From contig CAZJYU010000003.1 of NCBI GenBank assembly GCA_964550305.1, forward strand, positions 20,220-84,219: 64,000 bases of DNA, read 5' to 3'. Under the pieces are notes generated by a model that saw nothing but the letters and a program-made list of their open reading frames with translations, did not search any database and was not told the origin of the DNA. This document shows, piece by piece, positions 6,540-62,286 of the stretch. Every line of letters starts with the position of its first letter. Position 1 is the stretch's first letter. The DNA comes from an uncultured Vicinamibacteraceae bacterium (GTDB taxonomy: Bacteria; Acidobacteriota; Vicinamibacteria; Vicinamibacterales; UBA8438). The translations under genes were made by a program, and so were the position numbers.

Positions 6540-7553
6540 CTATACGTCTTCCTTGAGCGTCACCGCGTCCAGGAACGGCATCATCGCGCGGAGCTCGGCG
6601 CCCACCTCTTCGATCTGGTGCGCCTGCTCCTGCCTGCGCTGCGCCATGAACCAGGGGCGGCCCGCCTTGTCCTCGGCGATCCACTTGCTGGCGTACGTGC
6701 CCTCCTGAATGTCCTTCAGGATCTGCTGCATCGCCTGTCGGGTCTCGTCCGTCACGACGCGCGGGCCACCGGTGTAGTCGCCGTGCTCGGCCGTGTCGCT
6801 CACCGAGTAGCGCATGTAGTTGAGGCCGCCCCGGTAGAAGAGGTCCACGATCAACTTCAGCTCGTGCATGCACTCGAAGTACGCCACTTCGGGCTGGTAA
6901 CCGGCTTTGACCAGAGTCTCGAAACCCGCCTTCACGAGCGCGCTGACGCCACCGCACAGCACCGCCTGCTCACCGAACAGATCCGTCTCGGTTTCCTCCG
7001 CGAACGTGGTCTCGATAACGCCCGCGCGCGTCAGGCCGAGCGCCTTGGCGTACGACAGCGCAAGCGCCTTGGCGCTGCCGGTCGCGTCCTGCTCCACCGC
7101 GATCAGGGCCGGCGTGCCGCCCCCCTCGAGAAATACCTCGCGCACCCGGTGACCGGGCGCCTTGGGGGCGATCAGGGTGACGTCCACGTCGGGGGGTGGC
7201 TGAATCGTCTTGAAGCGGATGTTGAAACCGTGCGCGAACATCAGCATCTTGCCCGCGTCGAGATGCGGCGCCACCTGCTCCGCGTAGATGCCCGCCTGCG
7301 TCGTGTCCGGCGTCAGCAGCATGATGACGTCGGCCCATGCCGCCGCCTCGGCGCCTGACACGACCGTCAAGCCTTCTGCCTCCGCCCTGGCCGTCGACCG
7401 GCTCCCCTCGTGCAGCGCCACGCGCACCGCGACGCCACTCTCCCTGAGATTCAACGCATGCGCGTGTCCCTGCGAGCCGTAGCCGAAAACCGCCACCCTC
7501 CGCCCCTGGATCAGCCCGAGGTCGGCGGAGTCGTCGTAGTAGATCGTCGCCAT
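6540..7553 (-). CDS. ilvC: ketol-acid reductoisomerase
   Basis: [40 protein letters not shown]...[10 protein letters not shown]... is unmistakably class I KARI. It is the last gene of the ilv cluster. Confidence 0.95.
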
Positions 7554-7622
7554 CGTGTCGCTGCCCTCTCGCTGTCGATGTGATGGTTACAGGGCCAGGA
7601 ACGGGCCCGCGAAACGGACAGT

Positions 7623-8219
7623 TTACACCGAGTACGAAACGTCGGGGTCGTCGTCGGTTCCGCCCGACGCCGCCCCGGACGGGCGGTTCGCCGGCCGGAC
7701 CGGGAGGTCGGCCGGATCGATCATCACGCTGTGCGCGCCCCGCACCATGGCTACCCGGCCGGTCCGCACGATCTCGAGGATGCCGTAGGGCCGGAGCACC
7801 TCCAGCAGACCGTCAATCTTCTCCTCCGTGCCGATGGTCTCGATCACCATCGCGTCGGGCCCGACATCCACCACACGCGCCCGGAACGCGTCGGCAAGCT
7901 GCATGACGTGGGTCCGCGTCTCCGCCGTCGCCCCCACCTTGACCATCGCCAGCTCCCGGAACATCACGGCGGCGTCGGTTACATCATGCACGCGCAGGAC
8001 GTTCACCAGCTTGTAGAGATTCGCCTCGAGACGACGTCCGCCGATCGGGTCCGTGCGCACGACGATCGTCATCCGTGACACGCCGGGCGCTTCGGCATGG
8101 CCGACCGTAAGCGACTCGATGTTGAACGCGCGCCGCCGGAAGAGCGAGGCGACCCGGTTCAGCACGCCCGGCTTGTCCTCGACCCAGACGACGAACGTGC
8201 GGCGTGGCTGTGCGGCCAT
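7623..8219 (-). CDS. ilvN: acetolactate synthase small (regulatory) subunit
   Basis: Track ORF 7623..9686 is a fusion artefact. The real gene starts at ATG 8217-8219: MAAQPRRTFVVWVEDKPGVLNRVASLFRRRAFNIESLTVG... (ACT domain). 198 aa. Confidence 0.9.
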   Translation of the reverse strand: MAAQPRRTFVVWVEDKPGVLNRVASLFRRRAFNIESLTVGHAEAPGVSRMTIVVRTDPIGGRRLEANLYKLVNVLRVHDVTDAAVMFRELAMVKVGATAETRTHVMQLADAFRARVVDVGPDAMVIETIGTEEKIDGLLEVLRPYGILEIVRTGRVAMVRGAHSVMIDPADLPVRPANRPSGAASGGTDDDPDVSYSV

Positions 8220-8254
8220 GGTGTGTCTCGCGCCTCCAGCTACTTCGTCTCTCG

Positions 8255-9976
8255 CTACTCGTCGTCCGCCGTCTCGACAATCGGCGCCGGGCTGGGCCGG
8301 CGAATCATATGGTGCAGGTCGGCGCCGGCCGGCACCATCGGGTAGACCGTGTCTTCCTGCTCGACCTGGAAGTCGATCACCACCGTACGGTCGTCGTCGC
8401 GGGCTCGCTGCACCGTCGGTTCCACCTCGCCGCGGGTCTTGACCGTGGCGCCACCCAAGCCAAAACACTGAGCCAGCCTGGCGAAGTCCGGGCTCAGCAG
8501 CGGCGTAGCGGCGTAACGGCGCTCGTAGAAAAACTCCTGCCACTGCCGCACCATGCCGAGATAGCCGTTGTTGATGATCGCCACGTTGATCTTGATCCGC
8601 TCCTGCGCGATCGTGGCGAGCTCCGCCATCGTCATCTGAAAGCCACCGTCGCCCGCCACCACCCACACTTCGGCATCCGGCCTCGCCAGCTTTGCGCCGA
8701 CCGCGGCCGGCAACGCGAAGCCCATCGTCCCGAGGCCGCCCGAAGTAATCAGCGTGCGCGGGTCGTTGTGGTGGTAGTACTGCGCCTCCCACATCTGGTG
8801 CTGGCCAACATCGGTCACGACGATTGCCTTTCCGTCGGTCATCCGCCAGATGTCGTTGATGACGTGCGCAGCGTAGAGGTGCCCACTGTCGGGAAGGTTC
8901 TGGATGTCGCGGACGGCGACGTCCCCTTTCATTTCGCGGATCGTCTCGAGCCACGCCTCGTGACGGTTCTCCTCGACCAGTGGCGCCAAGTCTTCCAGCA
9001 CCGCGGACAGGTCGCCGGCCAGGGCGACATCCACCCGGACGTTCTTGTGGAACTCCGCCGGATCGATGTCCACATGCACCTTGCGCGCATTCGGCGCGTA
9101 GGTCTTCACGTTGCCGGTGACCCGGTCGTCGAAGCGCATGCCGAGCGCCAGCAGGAGATCCGCCTCCTGAATGGCGGCATTGACCCACGACTCGCCATGC
9201 ATCCCCATCATTCCCATGTTGAGCGGATGCTGGGCCGGAACGCCGCCGATGCCAAGCAGCGTCATCGCGATCGGGATGTGCGCCCGCTCGGCCAGCTCCC
9301 GCACCTGTCCCATGGCGCCCGACAGGAGCACGCCGTGACCGGCCAGGATCACCGGCCGCTTGGCCCGGTTCACGAGGTCGGCCGCCCTCCGGTACTCGTC
9401 GTCGGACGCGCGCAGATGCGGCCGGTAGCCCGGCAGCTTCACGTCGTCCGGCCCGAACTGCAACTCGGTCGACGCCTGCTGCGCGTCCTTCGTGATGTCC
9501 ACAAGCACGGGGCCGGGGCGGCCGGATCGCGCGACGTACATCGCCTCGCGAATCACCGGCGCGATCTCTTCGACGTGCGACACCAGATAGTTGTGCTTGG
9601 TAATCGGCAGCGTGACACCGGTGACATCCGTCTCCTGGAACGCGTCCGACCCGATCAGCCGGCTCCCCACCTGACCGGTGATGCACAGAATGGGCGAAGA
9701 GTCGAGCATTGCCGTCGCGATGCCGGTCACCATGTTGGTGGCGCCCGGACCGGAGGTGGCCACCGCCACGCCCACCTGGCCGCTCGCGCGGGCGTAGCCA
9801 TCCGCCATGTGGGTCGCCCCCTGTTCGTGGCGAACCAGAACGTGGCGAATCGGGTACTCCAGCAGCGCGTCGTAAGCAGGCAGGATTGCCCCGCCGGGAT
9901 AGCCGAAGACGGTGCCGACACCCTCCCGCACCAGCGCTTCCCAGATGATCTGCGCGCCCGTTCTCATCGAAGCCAT
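8255..9976 (-). CDS. ilvB: acetolactate synthase large (catalytic) subunit
   Basis: MASMRTGAQIIWEALVREGVGTVFGYPGGAILPAYDAL...GPGATNMVTG...GLGTMGFALPAAVGAK...GDGGFQM are ThDP/FAD AHAS motifs. Confidence 0.95.
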   Translation of the reverse strand: MASMRTGAQIIWEALVREGVGTVFGYPGGAILPAYDALLEYPIRHVLVRHEQGATHMADGYARASGQVGVAVATSGPGATNMVTGIATAMLDSSPILCITGQVGSRLIGSDAFQETDVTGVTLPITKHNYLVSHVEEIAPVIREAMYVARSGRPGPVLVDITKDAQQASTELQFGPDDVKLPGYRPHLRASDDEYRRAADLVNRAKRPVILAGHGVLLSGAMGQVRELAERAHIPIAMTLLGIGGVPAQHPLNMGMMGMHGESWVNAAIQEADLLLALGMRFDDRVTGNVKTYAPNARKVHVDIDPAEFHKNVRVDVALAGDLSAVLEDLAPLVEENRHEAWLETIREMKGDVAVRDIQNLPDSGHLYAAHVINDIWRMTDGKAIVVTDVGQHQMWEAQYYHHNDPRTLITSGGLGTMGFALPAAVGAKLARPDAEVWVVAGDGGFQMTMAELATIAQERIKINVAIINNGYLGMVRQWQEFFYERRYAATPLLSPDFARLAQCFGLGGATVKTRGEVEPTVQRARDDDRTVVIDFQVEQEDTVYPMVPAGADLHHMIRRPSPAPIVETADDE

Positions 9977-10016
9977 GTCGTTGCCTCTTGCCTGATTGTG
10001 CCCGTGCCCCGGCTCG

Positions 10017-11684
10017 TCAGTTCGTTACCGCCCCACCCGCCGCCGACGAGACGAGCCGCGCGTACTTCGCCATCACTCCGCTCCGGAACCGCGGCTCCGG
10101 CGGCTGCCACGCCGCGAGGCGCGACGTGATCTCCGCCGCGTCCACTTCGAGCTCCAGCCTGCGGTTCCGTTCGTCGAACAGGATCGGATCGCCGTCCCGC
10201 ACCACCGCGATGGGACCGCCCGACGCCGCCTCCGGCGCCACATGGCCTGCCATCATGCCGCGCGTCGCGCCGGAGAAGCGGCCGTCGGTCAGGAGCGCTA
10301 CCGACTCGCCCAGACCGGCGCCGACAATGGCCGCGGTCACGGCCAGCATCTCACGCATCCCCGGCCCTCCCTTGGGACCCTCGTACCGGATCACCACCAC
10401 GTCGCCCGGCCGAACCCGTCCTGCCCCGACCGCTCCGAACGCCGCTTCCTCGCTGTCGAACACGCGCGCCGGACCCCGGTGCGTCGACGGCTCGTGGCCC
10501 GCCACCTTCACCACGCATCCTTCGGGGGCCAGATTCCCCTTCAGGATCACCAGCCCCCCCGTGGGAGTTATCGGGTCGGTGACCGAACGGACCACCTCCT
10601 GCCCCTCGGTCTCCACGGTCGCGCGCGCCACCTCGCCGATGGTCTGGCCCGTCACGGTCAGGGCGTCCTCCCGCAACAGGCCCGCCTCCTGCAGCCGCTT
10701 GGCCACCAGACCGATGCCGCCGGCACGATACATGTCGGTGGCCACGAAGCGGCCGCCGGGCTTGAGGTCCGCCAGCAGCGGGGTCCGCTCACTTACCCGG
10801 TCGAAGTCGTCGATTGCGAGATCGACTCCGGCCTCGTGCGCTATCGCCAACAGATGCAGCACGGCGTTCGTCGAACCGCCGGTCGCGGCGACGGCCGCGA
10901 TGGCGTTGTCGATCGCGGCGCGGGTCACGATCCGGCGGGGGCGGAGATCCTGAGAGACGAGATCCATCACCAGCTCGCCCGCCCGACGCGCGGCATCCGG
11001 CTTCTCGTCGGACATGGCCGGCACGCCGTTCGCACTCATCGGCGATACGCCGAGCAACTCGCAAACCGTCGACATCGTGTTTGCCGTGAACTGCCCGCCG
11101 CACGCACCCGGCCCGGGACACGCGACATCCTCCAGGGCGCAGAGTTGCGCGTCGGTCATCCGCCCCGCCGCATGCGCGCCGACCGCCTCGAAAACATCCT
11201 GGATCGTGACGTCGCGTCCTTCGTACCGGCCCGGCTCGATCGAGCCGCCATAGAGCACGAGTCCGGGGATGTCGAGGCGCACCAGCGCCATCACGCCTCC
11301 GGGGATCGTCTTGTCGCACCCCACGAGGATGACGATGCCGTCGAAGAGGTTGCCGCGCGCCACCAGTTCAATGGAATCGGCCACCACCTCGCGGCTGACG
11401 AGCGAGGCTTTCATTCCCTCGCTACCCATCGTGATGCCATCGGAGATGGAGACCGTGTTGAACTCCATCGGCGTGCCGCCGGCGGCGCGGATCCCGGCCT
11501 TCACCTGAGCGGCGAGGTCGCGCAGGTGATAGTTGCAGGGACCGATCTCGATCCAGGTGTTCGCGATACCGATGATGGGCCGTGCGAGATCGGCATCGCT
11601 GAAGCCGACCGCCTTCAGCATCGCGCGAGCCGGCGCGCGGCTCGGTCCGTCGGTGATCGCCGCGCTGCGTCGTTCGGGAGCCAT
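10017..11684 (-). CDS. ilvD: dihydroxy-acid dehydratase
   Basis: [54 protein letters not shown]...CDKTIPG...ATDGRFSG is the IlvD/Edd family. Start placed at ATG 11684. The track start at 11747 would lie inside the terminator hairpin of the leader. Confidence 0.9.
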
Positions 11685-11705
11685 TCTGTCTGTCACCAGC
11701 CTCAT

Positions 11706-11740
11706 AAAGAAAAAGCCATCATCCGCTGTCGGATGATGGC
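11706..11740 (-). terminator. intrinsic terminator of the ilv attenuator
   Basis: The minus strand reads GCCATCATCCG-ACAG-CGGATGATGGC followed by TTTTTCTTT: an 11-bp perfect stem, a 4-nt loop and a U-run, ending about 20 nt before the ilvD ATG. Confidence 0.75.
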
Positions 11741-11773
11741 CCTTCAAGGTCGCCGTGGGTGCGGATCAGGACA

Positions 11774-15113: not shown

Positions 15114-15190
15114 TGGCGCGCCCGGCAGGACTCGAACCTGCGACCCTCGGTTTAGAAGACCGATGCTCTATCCAGCTGAGCTACGGGCGC
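15114..15190 (-). tRNA. tRNA-Arg (anticodon TCT)
   Basis: Reverse complement GCGCCCG-TA-GCTC-AGCTGGATA-GAGC-A-TCGGT-CTTCTAA-ACCGA-GGGTC-GCAGG-TTCGAGT-CCTGC-CGGGCGC-G-CCA. 77 nt, anticodon TCT, encoded CCA. Confidence 0.95.
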
Positions 15191-17532: not shown

Positions 17533-19635
17533 ATGCCGGCCGAGCCGCCGCTCGCGTGGGGCCGATCGACCGTCGAAACCGCCTGCCCACTCGACTGCCC
17601 CGACACCTGCAGCCTGGCGGTATCGGTGGAGCGCGGCCGCGTCACGAAGATCGATCACTCCACCCGTCACGACGCCACTGCGGGGTACATCTGCCGCAAA
17701 GTGCGCGAATTCCAGGGGCGGGTTTACGGCCCGGATCGGCTGCATCATCCTGGTCGGCGGCGCGGCCAGCGGGGCGACGCGGACTTCGAGCGGATCGGCT
17801 GGGACCAGGCGCTCGACGAGATTGCCGGCCGGATGCGGGCAATCCGGGACGAATCCGGCGCTCAGGCAATCCTCCCTATCTCGTATGGCGGATCGAACGG
17901 CCTGCTCTCCCAGGACACCGTGGACGCCCGGTTGTTTCGCGCGTTCGGCACGTCGCGCCTCGCGCGCAACGTCTGCTCCGCGCCCACCACGACGGCGTCG
18001 GCAACCCTGTACGGCCGGATGCCGGGCGTGGCGTACGAGGACTACCGGCACGCCCGACTGATCGTGATCTGGGGCGCGAACCCGTCGACGTCCGGGTTTC
18101 ATCTGGTCCCGCATGTGCGCGCCGCCATGCGCGAGGGCGCGGCGCTGGTGGTGATCGATCCACGGCGCACGCCGCTCGCGCGGCAAGCCGACATTCACCT
18201 CGCCGTCCGACCCGGCACGGACGTGGTGGTAGCCCTCGCGATCCACCGGTTCCTGTTCGAACACGGCCACGCCGACACGGCGTTTCTCGACGCGCACGCG
18301 CATCATGCCGATGAACTGCGCCGCCGGGCCGGGGAGTGGACGTTCGACCGGGCCGCCGCGGTTGCCGACGTCGACCCCGGCCTGCTCGAACGGGTGGCTG
18401 CGCTGTACGCCAGGACGTCTCCCGCCGTGATCCGATGCGGCTGGGGGCTCGAGCGAAACCGGAACGGCGGCAACGCCGCCATGGCCGTATTGTCGCTGCC
18501 GGCGGTGGGCGGCAAGTTCGGGGTCCGGGGCGGCGGTTTCTCCATGAGCAGCTCGCGCGCGATCCCGCTTTCCGAAGAAGACTGGATCGGCATGCGGGAA
18601 CCGGCGACGCGTATCGTCAACATGAACCACCTGGGTCGCGCGCTGACGGACTACGACGACCCGCCGGTCAAGATGCTCTTCGTCTACAACTGCAACCCGC
18701 TGGTGACCATGCCAGATCAGAATCGGGTGCTGGCGGGCCTCTCGCGTGAGGACCTGTACACCGTGGTCTTCGATCAGGTGATGACCGACACGGCGCGATG
18801 GGCTGACATCGTGCTGCCGGCGACGACATTCCTCGAACACTACGATCTGGCGCTCAGCTACGGCCATGGCAACGTGCAGATCGTGCAGCCGGCGATTGAA
18901 CCGATGGAGGAGGCCCGACCGAACGTCGACGTCTTCGGCGAACTGGGGGTGCGACTCGGCCTCGACCTGCCGGAGCGCACCCCGGCCGACACGGCCGAGC
19001 TGCTGCACGTTGCCGGTGCGCTGAAGGACAACGCGGGCCAAGCCTTGCTTGCATCGGGCATCACCCGTGGTGCGGCGCATCGCGCCCCGGTGCAGTTCGT
19101 CGATGTCTTGCCTCGGACTCCGGACGCGAAGATCGATCTTGTGCCCGACGACCTCGACCGCCAGGCGCCGCTCGGACTCTACCGCTACCGACCGGCGCCG
19201 GAAGATGACGGCGCCAGCGAGTTTCCCCTCGCGCTGGTTTCGCCCGCCAGCGCCAGGACGGTCAACTCCACGCTGGGCGAACTGGACACCCGCACGGCGC
19301 GCCTTCGGATCCACCCACGGGACGCGGCGCGCCGCGACGTGTCGACGGACGATGTGATCCGCGTCTTCAACGGCCGGGGCGAAGTGCATTGCCTGGCGCT
19401 CGTTGACGCCGACATGAGGCCGGGCGTGGTCTGCCTGCCGAAAGGGCTCTGGCGGCGCAGCACGCTGAACGGCTCGACGGCCAACGCACTCGCGCCGGAC
19501 GATCTCACGGACCTCGGGGACGGCGCCTGTTTCAACGACGCGCGGGTTGAGGTGACGCGCATCGTCACCGCGCGGTTCGGCGGCGAGAGTGTCGCGCTCT
19601 GGACCGACACGTCGGCGGCGAAGGGGCTAAACTAG
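17533..19635 (+). CDS. molybdopterin-dependent oxidoreductase (DMSO reductase superfamily), cytoplasmic
   Basis: N-terminal 4Fe-4S motif C-PLD-C-PDT-C...YIC, then MopB-type regions (ISYGGSNG, VIWGANPS, VVIDPRRT) and a C-terminal molybdopterin dinucleotide-binding beta-barrel (IHPRDAARRDVSTDDVIRVFNGRGEV). No Tat signal. Confidence 0.85.
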   Translation: MPAEPPLAWGRSTVETACPLDCPDTCSLAVSVERGRVTKIDHSTRHDATAGYICRKVREFQGRVYGPDRLHHPGRRRGQRGDADFERIGWDQALDEIAGRMRAIRDESGAQAILPISYGGSNGLLSQDTVDARLFRAFGTSRLARNVCSAPTTTASATLYGRMPGVAYEDYRHARLIVIWGANPSTSGFHLVPHVRAAMREGAALVVIDPRRTPLARQADIHLAVRPGTDVVVALAIHRFLFEHGHADTAFLDAHAHHADELRRRAGEWTFDRAAAVADVDPGLLERVAALYARTSPAVIRCGWGLERNRNGGNAAMAVLSLPAVGGKFGVRGGGFSMSSSRAIPLSEEDWIGMREPATRIVNMNHLGRALTDYDDPPVKMLFVYNCNPLVTMPDQNRVLAGLSREDLYTVVFDQVMTDTARWADIVLPATTFLEHYDLALSYGHGNVQIVQPAIEPMEEARPNVDVFGELGVRLGLDLPERTPADTAELLHVAGALKDNAGQALLASGITRGAAHRAPVQFVDVLPRTPDAKIDLVPDDLDRQAPLGLYRYRPAPEDDGASEFPLALVSPASARTVNSTLGELDTRTARLRIHPRDAARRDVSTDDVIRVFNGRGEVHCLALVDADMRPGVVCLPKGLWRRSTLNGSTANALAPDDLTDLGDGACFNDARVEVTRIVTARFGGESVALWTDTSAAKGLN

Positions 19636-19678: not shown

Positions 19679-19960
19679 ATGGCCGACCGCACCGTGATGT
19701 GCGTGAAATTCGGGAAGACGCTTCCGGGACTGCACGAGCCGCCGTGGCCCGGCGAGCTCGGCCAGCGCATCTACGAGAACGTGTCCGAAGAGGCGTGGAA
19801 GCTCTGGGAAGAGCGCATGAAGATGATCCTGAACGAGTACCGCCTGATGCCTTGGCAGAAGGAAGCCCAGAAGCTGGTCGCCCAGCAGATGGAGGACTTC
19901 TTCTTCGGCGAAGGATCCGCCCTTCCGCCTGACTACGTCCCGCCGCAGGCCAAACAGTAG
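19679..19960 (+). CDS. yggX: Fe(2+)-trafficking / oxidative-damage protection protein YggX
   Basis: MADRTVMCVKFGKTLPGLHEPPWPGELGQRIYENVSEEAWKLWEERMKMILNEYRL... aligns well with E. coli YggX as I remember it (C-x...PGELG.RIY...S.EAW..W). Confidence 0.85.
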   Translation: MADRTVMCVKFGKTLPGLHEPPWPGELGQRIYENVSEEAWKLWEERMKMILNEYRLMPWQKEAQKLVAQQMEDFFFGEGSALPPDYVPPQAKQ

Positions 19961-19962
19961 GA

Positions 19963-21267
19963 CTATCCCGCCGGACGGACGGCCAGCTCCGGCGCAATGT
20001 CGAACCTGAGGCGCGCGTGCGCCGCGCGCGCCGCTTCCACAACGTCGTTCCGATCGCGGCCACGGGCGAAGATGAAGCCGGGGTAGCTCGCGCCCTCCGG
20101 CCACGGGATGAGACGCTCACCCGGCTTGGCGGTAACGATCACCTCTTCGATCCCCGGCACCGCGCGCGCCGCGTCCACGCCCGTGACCTCCCGGCAGATG
20201 CCGGCGCCAGGCACCGGGATCATCATCACCGCCGATGCCTCGTCCGACACGCGCCAGCCATCGACTGCATCTCCGAGCGCGTGGCGGAGCAGCACCTCCT
20301 CGAGGGTCGCTACTGCCGCGCCATCCCGGCCCGCGCCGGCATGCGCCGGCGGAACGAACCGCAACACCCTCGCGCAGCGCCCGCCGATGGGCCGGGGCGC
20401 CACTTCCAGGACCACCACCGTCTCGCCGTCGATGCGCGCTTCGGCGTGGATCGGGCCGTCGGTGAGTCCAAGAGCGCCAACCGCCCGGGCCACCTGCACG
20501 ATTACGGACTTGCGCAGTTCAGGCGGCAGCGTGTCGGGCCTCGCGTAGATCGTTTCCTCGAAGAAGGGGCCGTCCAGCGGATCCGGCTTGTCGAAGATCG
20601 CGAAGACCTCGAGCGCACCGCCGGTCACCACCCCTTCGACCGCTACCTCCCGGCCGGGCACGAACGCTTCGATCAGCATCGTGTCGTTCGCCGGATCGCG
20701 CTGCGCCCGCACTTCCGGCATCCCGAGGAGACGGCGCAGGCGAGCCGCCGCGGCAAGCAGCTCCTCCGCCGTGTCGGCGCGGATGACGCCGCGGCTCGCC
20801 GACAGCGCCATCGGCTTGACAACGCAGGGAAACACCGCGCCGTCGAGCAGAGCCGCCTTGTCCGCCCCCACCGGCACGGCGCGGAATGCCGGCCCTGGGA
20901 GGCCGGCCGCGCGCAGTCGCTCGCGGGTGCGCTGCTTGTGCGCGGCGGCGCGCGCCGCCTCCGGCGGGTGGCCACGCAGCCCAAGCGCGCGCGCGGCGCC
21001 CGCGGCCACGATAGCGGGGCGGTCGCCCACCGCCACAATGCCATGAATGGGCGGCCGGGCCGCCACAATTGTGTCAACCGCCGCGGACTCGTCGTGGAAC
21101 GGGATCGGCAGAGCCCCGTCCCGCCAGGGATCGTCGAGTTGATGGCACCGGTCGGTCGCAAAGGCAAGGCGCAAGCCGAGACGTTCGGCCGCGCTACCGA
21201 ACGACCGGAGCTGGTACCCGGTGGTGGCGGCCACCACCAGGACGCGCCGGGGATCGGAGCGGTTCAC
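19963..21267 (-). CDS. ATP-grasp domain protein (carboxylate-amine ligase-like)
   Basis: 434 aa with a pre-ATP-grasp Rossmann-like N-terminus and ATP-grasp core motifs (...KQRTRERLRAAGLPGPAF...FPCVVKPMALSASRGVIRA...IEAFVPGREVAVEG...LEVAPRPIGG). GTG start 7 nt after the extended radical SAM stop. Confidence 0.8.
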   Translation of the reverse strand: MNRSDPRRVLVVAATTGYQLRSFGSAAERLGLRLAFATDRCHQLDDPWRDGALPIPFHDESAAVDTIVAARPPIHGIVAVGDRPAIVAAGAARALGLRGHPPEAARAAAHKQRTRERLRAAGLPGPAFRAVPVGADKAALLDGAVFPCVVKPMALSASRGVIRADTAEELLAAAARLRRLLGMPEVRAQRDPANDTMLIEAFVPGREVAVEGVVTGGALEVFAIFDKPDPLDGPFFEETIYARPDTLPPELRKSVIVQVARAVGALGLTDGPIHAEARIDGETVVVLEVAPRPIGGRCARVLRFVPPAHAGAGRDGAAVATLEEVLLRHALGDAVDGWRVSDEASAVMMIPVPGAGICREVTGVDAARAVPGIEEVIVTAKPGERLIPWPEGASYPGFIFARGRDRNDVVEAARAAHARLRFDIAPELAVRPAG

Positions 21268-21274
21268 GGCACGG

Positions 21275-22666
21275 TCAGACCAGAGCCACCTGCTCCGGAC
21301 TTGGCTCGGCTCAGCAGTACCACGGCTCGTTCAGGTACGGCATCTCGGTTCGCTGCCGAATCGGAGCCGTTCTGGACGGCGGTGGCGAGGCGTTGGCGTG
21401 GGCAAGAGCCCGGATCTCGTCGAACACCGCGCGGCGGTCGGCCGACAGGCGACGGCCGGCTATCGCCATGACCCCTTCCGCCAGGCGGTCGATTGCGGGA
21501 TCGGCGTGCCGCCACGGATAAACGAGCCGCTGTTCGTCGAACGGCCCGAGCTGCGTCCGAAGGTCGTCCAGATCGAGCAGATGGGAGCCCGACGTCACCA
21601 GCAGCCGCAGGGCCAACTGGATTGGCGCGACCTGTTCGACGAGATCGAGACGGTCGATCTCCGCCAGCAAATCGCGGTAGCCGGCTCCGGTCGTCCAGGG
21701 CGTGAAGGGCACGAACGTCGGCGCCAGCGCCAGGCCGGCATCACGGCAGAGCCCGACGGCACGCTCGACGTCCCGCCGAGTATGGCCCTTCCGCAGACGC
21801 GCGAGGACAGCGTCGTCGAACGACTCGACCGCCGTGGTCACGAAGATGCAGCCGGTTTCCCGGAGGCGCGGCAGCCGATCCGCATGGACGATCAGATGCT
21901 CCACCTTGATCGTGGCGTCGTAGGTGACTCCAGGCCACCGCTCTGCAAGCGCCTCGACGATGCGCATCGCGTGGCCCGGTCCATTGAAGAAATCCGGATC
22001 GCCGAACGTGATGTGCCGCGCTCCCAGCTCGACCTGAGCCGCGATGTCCGCCGCTATCACATCGGGGGGGACAATACGGAAGCGGCCGCCGTAGACCGGA
22101 ACGACCGGGCAGTGCCGGCAGAGATGCCGGCACCCGCGGCTCGCCTCCGTGTAGCCGGCGACGCGCCGCGACGTGCCGTGCTGCAACGTCGCGTAGCGGT
22201 CGAGCGGCGGAAGGCCGCGGCGCCATGGCGCGATCAGGCGCAGGCGCGGCAGGTCCGGCTGGGCGGCGTCGTTCGTGTGCTTCCCAGGCGCCGTCACATC
22301 CACCGCCTCGCCGGAGGCGACGCGGACCAGGTCCGCCTCGAACTCGCCACCCAGGATGTGACCGACGCCCAGCGACCGCAGATAGGAAGCGTTCAGCGGC
22401 GCGTACAGACCGTAGGCGCAGATCTCTGCGGCCGGGTTGATCCGCTGTGCGCGGCGAATCACCGGTGTCGCGAGACGCGTCGCGGTATGCATCGGCAGGT
22501 GAAACGCGACCAGGTGGGCGCTGGCCACCGCGCCGGTATCCAACGACTGCCGCGACAGGTCGAAGCAGGTGACCGTATGCCCCGCGCGCCGGAGCCACGC
22601 GGCCGGCGACGCCAGACCGAACGGCTGGCGCCCCAGCTCGTACGTCGCGATCAGCGTGACGTTCAT
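21275..22666 (-). CDS. B12-binding-domain radical SAM protein, probable selenoprotein with C-U-A-E-P tail (TGA 21311-21313 read as Sec)
   Basis: ATG at 22666 overlaps the stop of the upstream SSS gene (ATGA). N-terminal Rossmann-like B12-type domain and a CRHLCRHC (CxxxCxxC) radical SAM cluster. The track ORF ends ...NEPWYC at TGA, but the same frame continues AEPSPEQVALV to TGA 21275-21277, with a hairpin right after the first TGA. Confidence 0.7.
21279..21310 (-). promoter_or_regulatory. candidate bacterial SECIS hairpin
   Basis: RNA downstream of UGA: GAGCCA pairs with UGGCUC (6 bp), AGU bulge, CC/GG, apical loop GGAGCA about 18-23 nt after the U of UGA. Possible lower extension C5-G34, C6-G33. 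Confidence 0.45.
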
Positions 22667-24105
22667 GCCGCTGCCGAGGTGGCGCGCAGTTCCACTTCCG
22701 CCTCCGACGGCGGCGGGGTGAGCAGACTCACCACCAACAGGGTCAGAATCGATAGCAGGAGCGCCGGATAGGCGGTCTGCCACCCGAACAGATAGACCGG
22801 ATTGCCGTCGACCGCGCGGGCGAGTCCGATGATCTCCCAGACGAGCGTCGTCACCATGCCTACGGCAATCGACGCCACGCCGCCCGCGCGCGTCGCCCGC
22901 TTCCATACGAGCGCGCCGAGCAGGGCCGGGGTGATCCCGGCGCCGTACATCGTGTACGCCCACAGCGCCATCGCCAGGATCGTGGGGAAGAAAGTCCCGG
23001 CAACGTAGCCGAGCGCACCGACCGCGACAACGATCAGCCGCGTATACATCACGACCTGCCGGTCGCTGACCTCCGGATTGATGAAACGCTGGTAGACATC
23101 CCGGATCAGGTTGGTTGAAGGCGTCAGGAGGAAGCTGTTCGCCGTCGACACGACGATCGCCGCCGCGCCGCAAACCAGGAGCACGCCGAGACCGGCCGGC
23201 AGCACGTCGGTCGCCACGCGGATGACGATCGCTTCCGACTGCGCGGCATCCAGGCCGCCAATCCGCAGCGACCCGAGAATGCCGGTCGAATCAATCAACG
23301 TCTCGACCACGATCGTGCCGACGATCCACCCGAGCACGGCCAGGCGGGCCGCCCGCTCGTCGCGCGCCGAGAAGAACTTCTGGTACATGTTCGCTTCGCC
23401 GAGGAGCAGGAACATGGTGGGGAGAAACAGCGCGAATGCGGCCTGCGGACCGATGTCACCGAACAGCGACACCTGGTGAGGCTGGAGCTGTCCGATCGAC
23501 GCGCCGAGCCCGCCCGCGTCGCCGACCAGGTAGGCCACGCCCAGGGCGACCGCGATCGTCATGATCAAACCGTTACCGACGTCGATATAGGCGATCGACA
23601 ACATGCCGGCGAGCGCCGTGAAGAGGATGCAGAAGATCGCCGTCACGAGCGCTCCGGTCCCCGGATCGATGCCAGCCACAAGCTCCAGCACGCGCCCGCC
23701 GCCCCGGAACTGGTAGGCGGCGATCGTGCCGTAGGCCAGCACCGTGGTGATCGTGCCGAGGATGCGCGCGGCGGGGCCGTAGCGCAGCTCCAGGATGTCG
23801 GGGACGGTGTACTGCGCTATGCGGCGGACGCGCGGCGCAAGAAAGTAGACCAGCGCGATGCCGACCCAGGCGCCCGCCGATTGCCACAGCACCGCAAAGC
23901 CCGTACGGTAACCGAGGCCGGCGCCGCCGAACAGGCTGCCCGATCCAATCCAGGTCGCGAGGAGCGTGAACACCAGGACGTGCGCCGGCAGGCGGCGCCC
24001 CGCCACGAGGAAGTCGTCACCGGTCCGGACGCGGCGACTGCGCCACACGCCGATCAACACCAGAAGCGACAAGTAGAGGACGACTGCGGTCAGCACGCCC
24101 ATCAT
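22663..24105 (-). CDS. sodium:solute symporter (SSS/SSF) family transporter
   Basis: 480 aa, about 13 TM segments. N-terminus ...GVWRSRRVRTGDDFLVAGRRLPAHVLVFTLLATWIGSGSLFGGAGLGY is typical of the SSF family. Confidence 0.85.
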   Translation of the reverse strand: MMGVLTAVVLYLSLLVLIGVWRSRRVRTGDDFLVAGRRLPAHVLVFTLLATWIGSGSLFGGAGLGYRTGFAVLWQSAGAWVGIALVYFLAPRVRRIAQYTVPDILELRYGPAARILGTITTVLAYGTIAAYQFRGGGRVLELVAGIDPGTGALVTAIFCILFTALAGMLSIAYIDVGNGLIMTIAVALGVAYLVGDAGGLGASIGQLQPHQVSLFGDIGPQAAFALFLPTMFLLLGEANMYQKFFSARDERAARLAVLGWIVGTIVVETLIDSTGILGSLRIGGLDAAQSEAIVIRVATDVLPAGLGVLLVCGAAAIVVSTANSFLLTPSTNLIRDVYQRFINPEVSDRQVVMYTRLIVVAVGALGYVAGTFFPTILAMALWAYTMYGAGITPALLGALVWKRATRAGGVASIAVGMVTTLVWEIIGLARAVDGNPVYLFGWQTAYPALLLSILTLLVVSLLTPPPSEAEVELRATSAAA

Positions 24106-28314: not shown

Positions 28315-28872
28315 TCAGAGCAGGTCCGCGATATCCTTCTCGAACGCCTCGCGCGTGGCGATCCCCATGTGGGTCCGGCAGAGTGTCCCTTCGCGATCGA
28401 TGAAGAAGGTGACCGGCAATCCCCAGATGGGGCCGTACGCCTCTTGAACATCTTCCCGGCCGAGGCCGACCAGCATCGGGTAGTTCACCTGGAACTCCGC
28501 TGCGAACGGCCGGATTTGCTCCGGCGTGTCGTCTACCGAGAGCCCCAGGACGACGAGCCCGTCGTCCTGGTACTCACGCTGGAACTCCACGAACCAGGGG
28601 ATCTCGATCTTGCATGGCCCGCACCAAGTGGCCCAGAAGTTGAGAAGAACCACGCTTCCCTTCAACTCGGCCAGGTTCACCTGGTTGCCGTCGATGTCCC
28701 GTAGCGTGAAGTCCATCGGGGCGGGCCGGGCATCCTCGTCGCAGGTCGCCGCGCTGGCGCTGCTTCCGCTAGCCGCGAACGGCCCCACTCCGAGGCTGCG
28801 AACCGCGGGCAGCGTTAGCAACCCGAGGGCCAGGGCGGCCCCGACCGCGAGAATCCACCGTCTTGTCGTCAT
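28315..28872 (-). CDS. TlpA-family periplasmic thiol:disulfide oxidoreductase
   Basis: Signal/anchor MTTRRWILAVGAALALGLLTLPA, then a thioredoxin fold with the WCGPC active site (LLNFWATWCGPCKIEIP). Confidence 0.85.
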   Translation of the reverse strand: MTTRRWILAVGAALALGLLTLPAVRSLGVGPFAASGSSASAATCDEDARPAPMDFTLRDIDGNQVNLAELKGSVVLLNFWATWCGPCKIEIPWFVEFQREYQDDGLVVLGLSVDDTPEQIRPFAAEFQVNYPMLVGLGREDVQEAYGPIWGLPVTFFIDREGTLCRTHMGIATREAFEKDIADLL

Positions 28873-28955
28873 GAAAGCTCCTGAGGGTAACCGCTCAGTC
28901 TCCAGAATATCGCGGGCCGCAGTTCGATCTCAAGAGAGGGGGAGCAGTCGCGCAG

Positions 28956-31437: not shown

Positions 31438-34314
31438 TCAGTGCTGCAGTGCCGGACGCAGGCAGGCGCCCGTAAGCGAGCCCGTCTGCGCCGCCACCTC
31501 CTCCGGCGTTCCTTCGGCCACTACCGCCCCACCCTCGGCGCCGCCACCCGGGCCGAGATCGACGATGTGGTCCGCCGCCTTGATGACGTCCAGGTGGTGT
31601 TCGATCACCACCACCGTGTTGCCCTGATCCACGAGCAGGTTGAGCACATCGAGCAGACGCTTCGTATCCTCGAGGTGCAACCCCGTCGTCGGCTCGTCCA
31701 GAATATAGAGCGTCCGCCCGGTGCTCCGACGTGATAGTTCCTTCGCAAGCTTGACTCGTTGCGCCTCGCCTCCGCTCAACGTCGTAGCGGACTGCCCCAG
31801 CGTCAGGTAGCCCAACCCGACATCCTGCAGCGTGCGCAGCTTCGCCGAGACCGAGGGCACGTTCTCGAGCAGGGGCGTCGCCTGATCGACCGTCATCGCC
31901 AACATATCGGCGATTGACGCGCCGCGGTAGGTGACCTCGAGCGTCTCCCGGTTATAGCGGCGCCCGCGACACTGCCCGCAGGTGACATAGACATCAGGCA
32001 GGAAGTGCATCTCGATGGCAATGACGCCATCGCCCTGACAGGCCTCGCACCGCCCGCCCTTCACGTTGAACGAAAAGCGGCCCGGCCGGTAGCCGCGTGC
32101 GCGGGCTTCGGGCAGCATCGCATAGATCTCTCGGATGAACGTGAACAATCCTGTATACGTGGCCGGATTTGAACGGGGGGTTCGTCCGATTGGCGACTGA
32201 TCGATCTGAATCACCTTGTCGATCTGCTCGATTCCCTCGATGGCGCCGTGCGGCCCCGGATCGGCCGCCGCCCGGTAGAGGACGCGCGCGAGGGCGCGGT
32301 AGAGGATGTCGTTCACCAGGGTCGACTTGCCCGAGCCGCTTACGCCGGTCACCGCCGTCAGCAGCCCGATCGGCAGCGCGACATCGATTTCCTTCAGGTT
32401 GTTGGCCCGGGCCCCCCGGATCGTGATCGCGCCATCCTGCGGGCGCCGGCGCGCGCTGGGTACTGCGATGGTGCGGGCGCCCCGCAGGTACATCCCGGTG
32501 AGCGACTCGCTGCCGTCCGCCTGCAGGGCCTCCGGGGAGCCCTGAAAGATCACGTGGCCGCCATGCTCGCCGGCGCCAACGCCCAGGTCGACGATGTAGT
32601 CGGCGGCGCGGATCGTCTCCTCGTCGTGTTCCACCACTACGACCGTGTTGCCCAGATCGCACAGGCGCCGGAGCGTCGAGAGCAGAAGCTGGTTGTCATG
32701 CTGATGCAATCCGATCGATGGCTCGTCGAGGACGTAGAGGACGCCGGTAAGGCTGGCGCCGATCTGGGTCGCCAGCCGAATCCGCTGGGCCTCACCTCCC
32801 GAGAGGGTCGCCGCGCCCCTGGCCAGCGTCAGATAGCCGACGCCGACATCGCAGAGGAACCGCATGCGGTCACGGATCTCACGGAGCACGCGGTCGGCGA
32901 CCTGTGCTTCCCGCGCAGTCAACTCGAGTGCGTCGAACGCGGCGAGCGCGTCGGCTATCGAGCGCGACACGTAATCCCACAACGTCCGCCCCTTCACCCG
33001 TACCGCGCGGCTTTCCGGCCGTAGGCGCTCGCCGCCGCAGTCCCCGCACCGCCGGCGCGCCCGGTACGCCTGCAGCGCTTCCTGCTGGGCCCAGGTTGCC
33101 GCCACGTAACGCCGCCGGAGGTTCGGAATAATCCCCTCGAAGTCGCGGCCGAAGGGATCCGGAGGGGATGTGCGGCGGCGGCGGCCGCCGCGAGCGGGGC
33201 CGTCGGCGCCGCCCGCGTTGCCAGCGCCGTCAGGCTGGCCGTAGAGCAGGAGGTCGCGCTGCCGGCGCGGCAGCTTGCCGAACGGACGGTCAAGATCGAT
33301 GCCGTAGTACTCCGAGAGACGCGCGAGCGCTCCCCCGACCAGTTCCCGGTCGCCAGCGGCCCAGGGTCGAATGGCTCCGTCGGCAAGCGACGCCGAGGGT
33401 TCCGGCACAATCCGTTCCGGTTCGAAATCCTCGATCACGCCCAGTCCCTGGCACTCCCGGCAAGCACCGTGCGGCGAATTGAACGAGAAGGCGCGCGGCG
33501 TCAGTTCCGGCATGTTGATGCCGCAGTCGGGACACGCCAGACGTCGGGAGAAGAGCCGGTCGCCACCTCCCAGGGTGTTGATGATGACGACGTCATCCGC
33601 CAGCGTGAGCGCCAATTCGATGGCTTCGGTGAGCCGCCGTTCCGCCCCGGCACGCGCCACCAGGCGGTCGACAACCACTTCGATCGAATGGTTCCGCCGC
33701 CGGTCGAGCGAGAACTCCTCCTCCAGCGAGCGAACCGTTCCATCCACCCGTACCCGCGTCAGCCCCCGCGCCCGGAGATCCTCCAGCTCCTTGCGGAATG
33801 CCCCCTTTCGGCCGCGGACGATCGGTGCAAGCACGTTCACCCGCTCCGCCGGGGGATGGGCCAGGATCGTCTCGACCATCCGCTCGACCGACTGGGACGT
33901 AATCGCCAGCCCGCACGATGGGCAATGCGGCACGCCGATATTGGCGAACAGCAGCCTGAGGAAGTCGTATATCTCGGTTACGGTGCCGACCGTCGACCGT
34001 GGATTGGACCCGGTGGTCCGCTGTTCGATGGAGATGGCAGGCGAAAGACCGTCGATCTGATCGACATCCGGTTTCTCCACCTGCTCGAGGAACTGGCGTG
34101 CGTAGGCGGACAGCGATTCGACGTAGCGCCGCTGCCCCTCGGCGTATACGGTGTCGAAGGCCAGCGACGACTTTCCGGATCCCGACAGCCCGGTGACGAC
34201 GACCAGTTGGTTCCGCGGGATTCGGACGTCGATGTCCTTCAGGTTGTGCACGCGAGCCCCGCGCACTTCAATCCAGTCGTGCGGGTCGCGCGGTGCGGCT
34301 AGGTCAGCCCCCAT
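31438..34314 (-). CDS. uvrA: excinuclease ABC subunit A
   Basis: 958 aa with two ABC cassettes ([18 protein letters not shown]), LSGGE signatures and CxxC zinc modules. [29 protein letters not shown] is a canonical UvrA N-terminus. Confidence 0.95.
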
Positions 34315-34338
34315 CGGCGAGTTCCCAAACGGACCATG

Positions 34339-60597: not shown

Positions 60598-60606
60598 CAG
60601 GCCGGT

Positions 60607-62286
60607 ATGGCGCCACAGTACGTCTATACGATGAAGGGGCTCGGCAAGCGGTACCCCCCCGACCGCATCGTGCTCAAGGACATCTGGCTCTCGTTCCTGC
60701 CGGGCGCGAAGATCGGAGTCCTGGGATCCAACGGGGCCGGCAAGAGCACGCTGCTTCGGATCATGGCGGGCGAGATCACGGAGTTTGACGGCGAGGCGTT
60801 TCCCGAGACCGGGCTGTCGATCGGCTACCTGGCGCAGGAGCCGCAGCTCGATCCGTCGAAGGATGTCGCGGGCAACGTGAACGAAGGCGTGGCCGATGCG
60901 CGGGCGCTACTTCGGCGGTACGACCGGATCACCAGAGACCTGGCGATCATCGGGCCCGGCTCGCTCGAGATGGAAGAGGCGCTCGACGAACAGGGGACGC
61001 TTCAGACGAAGATCGACGCCGCGCGCGCATGGGATCTCGACTCGCGCGTGAACATGGCGATGGACGCCTTGCGGCTCCCCCCCGGCTCGGCCGACGTCAC
61101 AAGGCTCTCGGGCGGCGAGCGGCGTCGGGTGGCGCTGTGCCGGCTGCTGCTGCAATCACCCGACTTGTTGCTGCTGGACGAACCGACGAATCACCTGGAC
61201 GCCGAGTCCGTCGCCTGGCTGGAGCGGTTCCTGGCCAACTACGCCGGCACCGTGGTGGCGGTGACGCATGACCGGTACTTCCTCGACAACGTCGCGGGCT
61301 GGATCCTCGAGCTGGACCGGGGCGCGGGCATACCGTGGCAGGGCAACTACTCATCGTGGCTCGAACAGAAGCAGCAGCGGCTCGGCGTCGAGGCGAGACA
61401 CGAGGCCAGGCGGCGAAGCACGCTGGAGCGCGAGCTCGAGTGGATCAACATGTCGCCCCGCGCACGGCAGGCCAAGGGGAAGGCGCGACTGAACGCCTAC
61501 GAACGGCTGCTCTCCGAGGACGCCGCCAGGAAGATCGAGCAGGTGGAGATCTACATTCCACCCGGCCCCCGACTTGGCAATGTCGTGGTGGAAGCCGATG
61601 GTCTGATCCACGGTTACGGCGAGCAGGCGTTGATCGGGAGGCTGTCGTTCACGCTCCCGCCCGCCGGCATCGTCGGCGTGGTTGGACCGAACGGCGCCGG
61701 CAAGACTACATTGCTGCGACTGATTGCCGGCGCGGAGGAGCCGGACGCCGGCACGATCCGCCTGGGCGAAACGGCGCAGATCGGCTATGTCGATCAGAAC
61801 CGCGAACTCGATGCCGACCAGACCGTATGGGAGGCGATCTCCGACGGGCACGACGAAATCAGGTTGGCGCGACGCACCGTCGCCTCGCGCGCCTACGTCT
61901 CGTGGTTCAACTTCCGCGGCGCCGATCAGCAACGGAAGGTGGGAACGCTCTCGGGCGGCGAACGCAACCGTGTCCACCTCGCCCGCCTGCTGCGCCGCGG
62001 CGCGAACCTGCTGCTGTTGGACGAGCCGACGAACGACCTGGACGTCGACACGCTTCGCGCCCTGGAAGACGCCCTGGTGGAGTTCGCCGGATGCGCCGTC
62101 GTGGTGAGCCACGACCGGTGGTTCCTCGACCGGATCGCCACGCACATCATTGCGTTCGAGGGCAACAGCGAGGTCGTCTGGTTCGCCGGTAACTACGCCG
62201 ACTACGAAGCGGACCGGCGGCGGCGGCTCGGCCGGGAGGCGGATCAGCCGCACCGGATCCGGTTCCGCAAGCTGACCCGCGCGTGA
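60607..62286 (+). CDS. ettA: energy-dependent translational throttle protein EttA (ABC-F ATPase)
   Basis: MAPQYVYTMKGLGKRYPPDRIVLKDIWLSFLPGAKIGVLGSNGAGKSTLLRIMAG... Two cassettes (GSNGAGKST, GPNGAGKTT; LSGGERRRV, LSGGERNRV), no TM domain, about 555 aa. Confidence 0.9.
   Translation: MAPQYVYTMKGLGKRYPPDRIVLKDIWLSFLPGAKIGVLGSNGAGKSTLLRIMAGEITEFDGEAFPETGLSIGYLAQEPQLDPSKDVAGNVNEGVADARALLRRYDRITRDLAIIGPGSLEMEEALDEQGTLQTKIDAARAWDLDSRVNMAMDALRLPPGSADVTRLSGGERRRVALCRLLLQSPDLLLLDEPTNHLDAESVAWLERFLANYAGTVVAVTHDRYFLDNVAGWILELDRGAGIPWQGNYSSWLEQKQQRLGVEARHEARRRSTLERELEWINMSPRARQAKGKARLNAYERLLSEDAARKIEQVEIYIPPGPRLGNVVVEADGLIHGYGEQALIGRLSFTLPPAGIVGVVGPNGAGKTTLLRLIAGAEEPDAGTIRLGETAQIGYVDQNRELDADQTVWEAISDGHDEIRLARRTVASRAYVSWFNFRGADQQRKVGTLSGGERNRVHLARLLRRGANLLLLDEPTNDLDVDTLRALEDALVEFAGCAVVVSHDRWFLDRIATHIIAFEGNSEVVWFAGNYADYEADRRRRLGREADQPHRIRFRKLTRA

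Follow-up and report, generated by a model that had tools for sequence, protein, structure and literature searches.

Among the radical S-adenosylmethionine (SAM) proteins, one family is named for its C-terminal tail: NCBI curates it as NF040546, "CUAEP/CCAEP-tail radical SAM (seleno)protein". Haft and Gwadz describe it only as an uncharacterised CU-motif selenoprotein, the CU dipeptide being rare among selenoproteins and a proposed binder of soft metals (bioRxiv 10.1101/2022.07.06.499078). A characterised radical SAM enzyme is ArsL, which cleaves SAM to a 3-amino-3-carboxypropyl radical that is joined to As(III), and whose C-terminal CCxxC binds As(III) and is essential (10.1101/2024.02.01.577332, 10.64898/2026.04.29.721666). 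The published limits for the bacterial selenocysteine insertion sequence (bSECIS) are a loop of 3-9 nt with a G within its first two positions, a stem of 4-16 bp, a spacing of 16-37 nt and a minimum free energy (MFE) of -7.5 kcal/mol or lower (PMC13188914). The phylum Acidobacteria is recorded as carrying selenoproteins (PMC1794560). Here we describe a gene in a stretch of 64,000 nt from an uncultured Vicinamibacteraceae bacterium (contig CAZJYU010000003.1, positions 20,220 to 84,219), the whole of which we call the window. This gene, at 21275-22666 on the minus strand, very probably encodes a 463-residue CUAEP/CCAEP-tail protein in which an in-frame UGA is decoded as selenocysteine (Sec) through a hairpin at 21280-21298. 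The established part of this reading comprises the family membership, a column that alternates between Sec and Cys, a tail conserved in the manner of translated sequence, and a hairpin that covaries and conforms to the bacterial SECIS model.

The open reading frame (ORF) starts with the ATG at 22666, which forms an ATGA overlap with the stop of the symporter gene upstream, and runs to ...RTEMPYLNEPWYC, ending in ...MPYLNEPWYC, before a first TGA at 21313-21311. Beyond this TGA, the same frame continues as A-E-P-S-P-E-Q-V-A-L-V to a second TGA at 21277-21275, and 7 nt further on GTG 21267 opens an ATP-grasp ORF (19963-21267). Direct reading of the DNA agrees throughout with a preliminary description of this stretch as to the end of the ORF, the extension, the spacing to the GTG and the ATGA overlap. 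Translated to the second TGA the gene has 463 codons, and its protein would end in C451-U452-A-E-P-S-P-E-Q-V-A-L-V, with U452 at 21311-21313 and the eleven tail codons, which also bear the SECIS-like hairpin, at 21278-21310. A stop-free extension of 11 codons is by itself without weight in a window of 68% G+C, being present in 63 of the 79 ORFs of at least 300 codons. The G+C content at third codon positions, a signal that the preliminary description had proposed to check, is 0.73 through 21278-21310 and 0.84 in the gene, eleven codons being too few to inform.

The 463-residue protein, tail included and with X at the TGA, matches NF040546 at 625.7 bits (E = 4.7e-188; cut-off 500). The aligned part, profile positions 1-467 of 468 against residues 3-461, takes in the extension, which thus belongs to the family model. 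The cluster motif CxxxCxxC of the radical SAM core is found as C179-x3-C183-x2-C186 and is invariant in the family alignment, as are C273 and C307. At the C-terminus, ...EPWYC-TGA-AEP... aligns with the CCAEP of the Cys forms, giving the C-[U/C]-A-E-P motif of the family. Judged from its sequence, the protein is a C-terminal C-U-A-E-P selenoprotein and a member of NF040546, the family to which the preliminary description had assigned it. That description had also spoken of a B12 domain; what the model shows is a resemblance at the level of fold only, to B12-binding-like Rossmann domains, and it has no counterpart in Pfam: the sole domain seen is Radical_SAM (PF04055, 57.8 bits), and PF02310, recorded for some homologues, is unmatched. 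An AlphaFold2 model (mean predicted local distance difference test score, pLDDT, 89; the tail is weak, 57 falling to 37) finds its closest folds in AprD4, OxsB, TsrM and MgmA, all of which have a Rossmann-type B12-binding-like N-terminal domain and a radical SAM barrel.

The comparison set consists of 80 loci from a scan of one genome per species; nearly all are labelled Acidobacteriota (Vicinamibacterales, Bryobacterales and others), and the best match is 77% identical. The codon aligned with the first TGA is TGA in 62 of these loci and TGC or TGT in 18. AEP follows in frame after every parsed TGA, the frame is never broken in the parsed Sec loci, and the tail ends after 11 codons in 58 loci and is longer in four. 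At codon positions 1, 2 and 3 of the tail, the columns have an entropy of 0.42, 0.39 and 1.11 bits, and right after the second stop of 1.92 bits; all four Ala codons (tail codon 1) and all four Pro codons (tail codon 3) are in use. This variation at third positions, together with the full use of Ala and Pro codons, indicates selection on the tail at the level of its translation. In 59 sequences (the 58 loci and the window) the frame closes, at the second stop, with TGA 35 times, TAG 18 times and TAA 6 times. In the window and its relatives, then, TGA also serves for normal termination, and the genetic code is not globally reassigned.

The Cys-form homologues read ...EPWYCCAEP[NS]PEQ[LV]xLV, with 11 residues past the second Cys, the same length as the window extension and near-identical to it in sequence. 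When the 120 closest protein clusters are sorted by their C-terminal end, 96 stop exactly at ...W[FY]C and 23 run on as ...WYCCAEP[NS]PEQ[LV]xLV. A search of 1.84 billion cluster representatives yields 591 relatives at E < 1e-30, and the motif P-x-[LM]-[ST]-E-x-W-[FY]-C-[U/C]-A-E-P-[TSM]-x-x-Q is kept at identities as low as about 32%. Of the 591 representatives (50% identity), the best 150 include 78 that are classifiable, 38 as truncated calls and 40 as Cys forms. Thus both the Cys-or-TGA column with its AEP extension and the conservation of the 33 nt as protein, on which the preliminary description had staked its case, are found in the relatives, the latter in the codon-position entropy as well as in the tails of the Cys forms. 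Within the set, a Sec-type subgroup (L043, L076, L081 and L083, at about 4436, 2162, 11396 and 4220) has a longer and different tail, AEPT[RG]DQL[AV]P..., and a hairpin displaced by a single register, its loop being the 4-nt AGUU, e.g. GGGGACC/GGUUCCC. Two loci from metagenome bins titled Bifidobacterium breve and Bifidobacteriaceae, L028 (CALQBJ020000119.1) and L042 (CAZUGF010000041.1), carry the acidobacterial-type gene at 58-60% identity; these contigs are probably mis-binned or mislabelled.

In a gapless alignment of the 59 Sec-type sequences, RNAalifold picks the hairpin CCGGAGC/AGGUG/GCUCUGG, which in the window lies at 21280-21298 on the minus strand (5' arm 21298-21292, loop 21291-21287, 3' arm 21286-21280). 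It spans +16 to +34 from the U of the UGA, and its loop starts 19 nt after the UGA. The hairpin is paired in 89% of cells, and slid controls drop to 38-55%. Cells changed on both sides number 35, against 12.9 in column shuffles, a number that not one of 500 shuffles attains. At pair 26-36 there is A-U in 46 sequences, G-C in 6, G-U in 4-5 by two tallies one apart, and C-G in 2; likewise, pair 23-39 is C-G in 40-41, A-U in 13 and G-C in 2. In these compensations one partner alters the amino acid, from Glu to Gly or Ala, and the other silently exchanges GCU for GCC or GCG, a coupling that selection on the protein does not explain. GAA serves for Glu within the stem in 0 of 46 sequences and beyond it in 17 of 59 (p = 2e-5), and GCU for Ala within the stem in 51 of 58 and beyond it in 3 of 59 (p = 1e-21); codon choice in the tail is constrained by the RNA. 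With 7 bp, a 5-nt loop AGGUG (G second, then G), a gap of 19 nt and -11.1 kcal/mol, the window hairpin lies within all the bSECIS limits.

The hairpin goes with the TGA. All six core pairs (columns 23-28 with 34-39) are present in 47 of the 59 Sec sequences, and 0-3 pairs in most Cys sequences; the mean local MFE is -9.96 kcal/mol for Sec forms and -3.71 kcal/mol for Cys forms. Among the Cys-form genes of the Bryobacterales, which end in WFCC-AEPTEEQ[VL]AHV, L030 (11321-11380) and L062 (11333-11392) retain five of the six pairs (GAGC-AGGUC-GCUC) and L074 (11318-11377) retains three. The hairpin of L030 and L062 looks like a remnant SECIS left after a recent replacement of Sec by Cys, and remnants of such kind have been described (PMC1794560). 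TGA-AEP and a hairpin at the equivalent site are also retained in distant Sec-type members, where the stems differ and the loop is AGUU or GUU: AAGAGUC/GACUUUU in L086, an AT-rich marine contig (35% identity to the window protein), GAGUCA/UGACUC in L088 (39%), GAGGGCC/GGCUCUC in L090 (41%) and GGCGGCC/GGCCGC in L093 (43%).

The preliminary description had placed a SECIS hairpin just 3' of the UGA, and in this it was right; the pairing that it drew is another one, at 21283-21307 on the minus strand, in which GAGCCA (21307-21302) pairs with UGGCUC (21288-21283), plus CC/GG, around a loop GGAGCA 18-23 nt after the UGA. That this pairing is the working SECIS is very unlikely. The window sequence allows it, with -11.2 kcal/mol (-14.4 kcal/mol in an extended form), and its loop begins with G, but as a conserved element it finds no support: over the 58 distinct sequences it is 71% paired against 70.6% in shuffles, with zero compensatory changes in its 6-bp stem, and 8 sequences that break its pair 14-36 have a compensated pair 26-36 in the other hairpin. 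As a bSECIS, with 2 bp in its upper stem and 14 nt between UGA and loop, it falls outside the limits of 4-16 bp and 16-37 nt. Its apparent conservation arises because the 5' arm encodes the invariant A-E-P. The element picked by RNAalifold lies one helix further 3' and shares the 3' arm.

By the proposed mechanism the first TGA would not be a stop; selenocysteine would be inserted there by the bacterial SelB/tRNA-Sec route, with the hairpin and its AG[G/U]U loop within the last 11 codons as the recoding signal, and translation would end at TGA 21275-21277 to give ...EPWY-C-U-A-E-P-S-P-E-Q-V-A-L-V. Several observations weigh against this reading. In the window sequence itself the GAGCCA/UGGCUC pairing is equally stable. 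A single-sequence fold of 66 nt is no better than its shuffles (z = -0.17), and its MFE structure is neither hairpin. Rfam returns no SECIS or other relevant family, either for the whole window at the gathering score or for 21150-21450 at an E-value threshold. Neither selA, selB, selD nor tRNA-Sec lies within the 64 kb, as the preliminary description had already remarked (ARAGORN; NCBIfam and Pfam on nearly all long ORFs), the only tRNAs of the window being tRNA-Pro and tRNA-Arg. ARAGORN likewise finds no tRNA-Sec in the 60 related loci scanned (L006-L065). The neighbours conserved among relatives are TamA/TamB, LemA, TPM and a hydrolase, with no sel genes among them. Sec machinery elsewhere in the host genome is assumed, from the record of the phylum and from the comparative pattern.

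Were the first TGA a genuine stop, the product would have 451 residues and the next 33 nt would be an untranslated RNA element, for instance one involved in coupling or controlling ATP-grasp translation. The hairpin would suit such a role, lying 13-31 nt upstream of GTG 21267, gene callers accept the 451-codon ORF, and stop-free extensions of equal length are common among the long ORFs of the window, as noted above. Yet the 33 nt vary as coding sequence does, with synonymous third-position changes at Ala, Glu and Pro and invariant first and second positions; no parsed Sec locus has a broken frame, and the position of the stop is mostly shared. The peptide that they would encode is the one translated by the Cys-form homologues, and C-[U/C]-A-E-P-x-x-x-Q is kept to about 32% identity. 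Moreover, both tail and hairpin persist in distant members whose ATP-grasp gene stands upstream or on the opposite strand, and we regard a genuine stop as extremely improbable. A translated tail could also arise if the UGA were read by another route, such as an opal-suppressing allo-tRNA or a Cys-inserting SelC-like tRNA, residue 452 then being Cys, Ser or another standard amino acid. Unusual allo-tRNAs of acidobacteria have been proposed as missense or nonsense (opal) suppressors (PMC5389517), and Sec machinery is not directly seen here. A plain suppressor tRNA, however, needs no hairpin, and a covarying AG[G/U]U-loop hairpin 19 nt after the UGA is a SelB-dependent signature; this route is disfavoured by the restriction of the hairpin to the TGA forms and its absence from most Cys forms. 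What aligns with the UGA is a Cys with a second Cys next to it, as is usual for an exchange of Sec and Cys; elsewhere in the same genes TGA is a stop, and NCBI curates NF040546 as a selenoprotein family. Decoding by a suppressor tRNA thus appears highly improbable, and decoding as selenocysteine remains the reading that we prefer.

That ordinary ORF calling truncates the gene, as the preliminary description had warned, is borne out by public records. The identical protein in public collections is a product of 451 residues ending in Cys, and public calls cut most family members at ...W[FY]C (the 96 of 120 clusters and the 38 of 78 classifiable representatives given above). By such truncation the residue likeliest to be catalytically important is routinely lost; the correct annotation has 463 codons, with U at position 452. 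The finding of a Sec-tailed radical SAM protein is correct and already known, in that NCBI curates the family and names it for its tail. The selenoprotein table of a 2026 selenoproteome review (PMC13188914) does not list the family. In the literature searched we found no published SECIS model or partner gene for NF040546, and neither a covarying SECIS in the last 11 codons nor a family-wide linkage to a ligase gene. The corrected hairpin and the ligase partner are modest additions.

This partner is the ATP-grasp gene at 19963-21267 on the minus strand, whose product matches Pfam ATP-grasp_4, LAL_C2 and ATPgrasp_N. No NCBIfam equivalog matches it, and its best solved relative is the L-amino acid ligase BL00235 (3VOT), to which it aligns almost from end to end at E = 1.4e-35. 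A gene of this type lies directly downstream of the radical SAM gene in 64 of the 71 loci with room for it (51 of 56 Sec-type, 13 of 15 Cys-type). Members of 32-43% identity likewise have it as a direct neighbour, though placed upstream or on the opposite strand; kept in differing gene orders, this adjacency points to a pairing that is functional, beyond inherited order. No description of a radical SAM selenoprotein paired with an L-amino-acid ligase was found in the literature searched. The first UGA stands 43 nt upstream of the ligase GTG, the hairpin 13-31 nt and the true stop 7 nt. Termination at the first UGA might give weaker translational coupling to the ligase than termination at the second stop, so that selenium supply might tune ligase expression, a pure inference from these distances.

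Upstream, a sodium:solute symporter gene (22663-24105, minus strand; Pfam SSF, TIGR00813) adjoins the radical SAM gene through the ATGA overlap, and such a gene is found there in 16 of the 80 loci, only the closest relatives. Just past the ATP-grasp gene, and convergent with it, a small ORF at 19679-19960 on the plus strand encodes a YggX-type Fe(2+)-trafficking protein of 93 residues (PF04362, 115 bits), with a homologue in 37 of the 80 loci. In the distant locus L090 the YggX gene is directly upstream of the radical SAM gene, and in L091 and L093/L094 a NifU-domain gene has a similar position; such proteins may serve the radical SAM enzyme as iron or Fe-S helpers. Other neighbours are housekeeping genes; those in the window also include a LigD phosphoesterase domain, YvcK and a molybdopterin oxidoreductase. 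The last, of 700 residues (17533-19635, plus strand), is Fdh-alpha-/DMSO (dimethyl sulfoxide)-reductase-like, falls below all equivalog cut-offs and has no in-frame TGA; it is found downstream on the opposite strand in 29 of the 80 related loci.

What might the enzyme do? We found no functional study of the CUAEP/CCAEP family in the literature. By profile score, ArsL (NF040542) is its closest characterised relative, matching residues 4-395 at 245.3 bits (E = 1e-72), with other radical SAM families at 51 bits or less. By analogy with ArsL, the vicinal Cys-Sec could be the catalytic or substrate-holding end of the enzyme, and an amino-acid-like product could pass to the adjacently encoded L-amino-acid ligase. 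That C451-U452 holds a substrate or forms the redox-active end, and that the product is an amino acid taken by the ligase, is a tentative proposal, possible though far from likely. The ArsL score is below the cut-off of 450, the window tail is WYCUAEP... in place of RCCLKC (CCxxC), neither arsM nor an ars operon is among the neighbours, and the modelled tail has the low pLDDT given above. PDB searches by sequence or fold return no solved ArsL structure. The main alternative is that the Cys-Sec pair acts as a redox-active selenenylsulfide on a swinging arm that moves electrons, with no ArsL-style binding of a substrate. The GCUG tail of thioredoxin reductase is such a C-terminal redox centre, with a vicinal Cys-Sec near a flexible C-terminus; the low-confidence tail of our model may be mobile, and no metalloid genes lie in the neighbourhood. 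On the other side, the closest characterised homologue, ArsL, holds its substrate with C-terminal cysteines, and Haft and Gwadz tie CU motifs to soft-metal chemistry (10.1101/2022.07.06.499078). An electron-carrying arm of the thioredoxin-reductase type seems to us somewhat unlikely, and hardly more so than the holding of a substrate. Extending the ArsL analogy, the CUAEP/CCAEP enzyme and its ligase, often with YggX or NifU, could form a widespread pathway in which a Cys-Sec clamp holds a metalloid or chalcogen, this is joined to the 3-amino-3-carboxypropyl group of SAM, and the methionine- or glutamate-like product is ligated into a dipeptide. Such a pathway is an unlikely guess; if true, it would be a second case of ArsL-type chemistry, with selenocysteine as the substrate-holding residue. 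The hairpin, the ligase linkage and the relationship to ArsL together offer a concrete, testable route to function.

Elsewhere in the window no further selenoprotein gene was found at the junctions between neighbouring ORFs in the same frame, which are ordinary gene ends. A ResA-like thioredoxin-fold protein (28315-28929, minus strand) has a weak sub-threshold match to the WAxxUGC selenoprotein family NF041054; its motif is WATWCGPC, CGPC and not UxxC, and it is a Cys form. Housekeeping genes lie at 6540-11765 (minus strand; ilvC, acetolactate synthase large subunit and ilvD, consecutive), 31438-34338 (minus strand; uvrA) and 60598-62286 (plus strand; ettA). The two tRNA genes are tRNA-Pro at 2310-2386 and tRNA-Arg(TCT) at 15114-15190. 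A tRNA-Arg is also found near the module in L006, L008, L010 and L011, indicating synteny conserved within Vicinamibacterales.

Set beside known systems, the window protein has the full length, the CxxxCxxC and the C-[U/C]-A-E-P tail of NF040546, and no structural difference from that family. Its hairpin is like the bSECIS model and that of E. coli fdhF in lying just 3' of the UGA, inside the coding sequence and within the published limits, with a stem of 6-7 bp and a loop of 4-5 nt, and its AGGU loop resembles the AGGUCU loop of fdhF; it differs in being placed in the last 11 codons of the gene, in abutting the stop codon and in having no evident bulged U. The partner protein has the ATP-grasp_4 and LAL_C2 domains in common with the L-amino acid ligases BL00235 (3VOT) and BacD. 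With ArsL the enzyme shares its architecture and a Cys-rich motif at the extreme C-terminus, Cys-Sec in the window protein; unlike ArsL it has the tail C-U-A-E-P, with two chalcogens and not three, an L-amino-acid ligase as its partner, and no ars operon. A vicinal Cys-Sec is also found in HgcA, the SAO-locus proteins, members of the MerT family and KCU-star, as well as in the GCUG tail of thioredoxin reductase, all of unrelated fold and context, whereas here the pair would sit at the end of a radical SAM enzyme.

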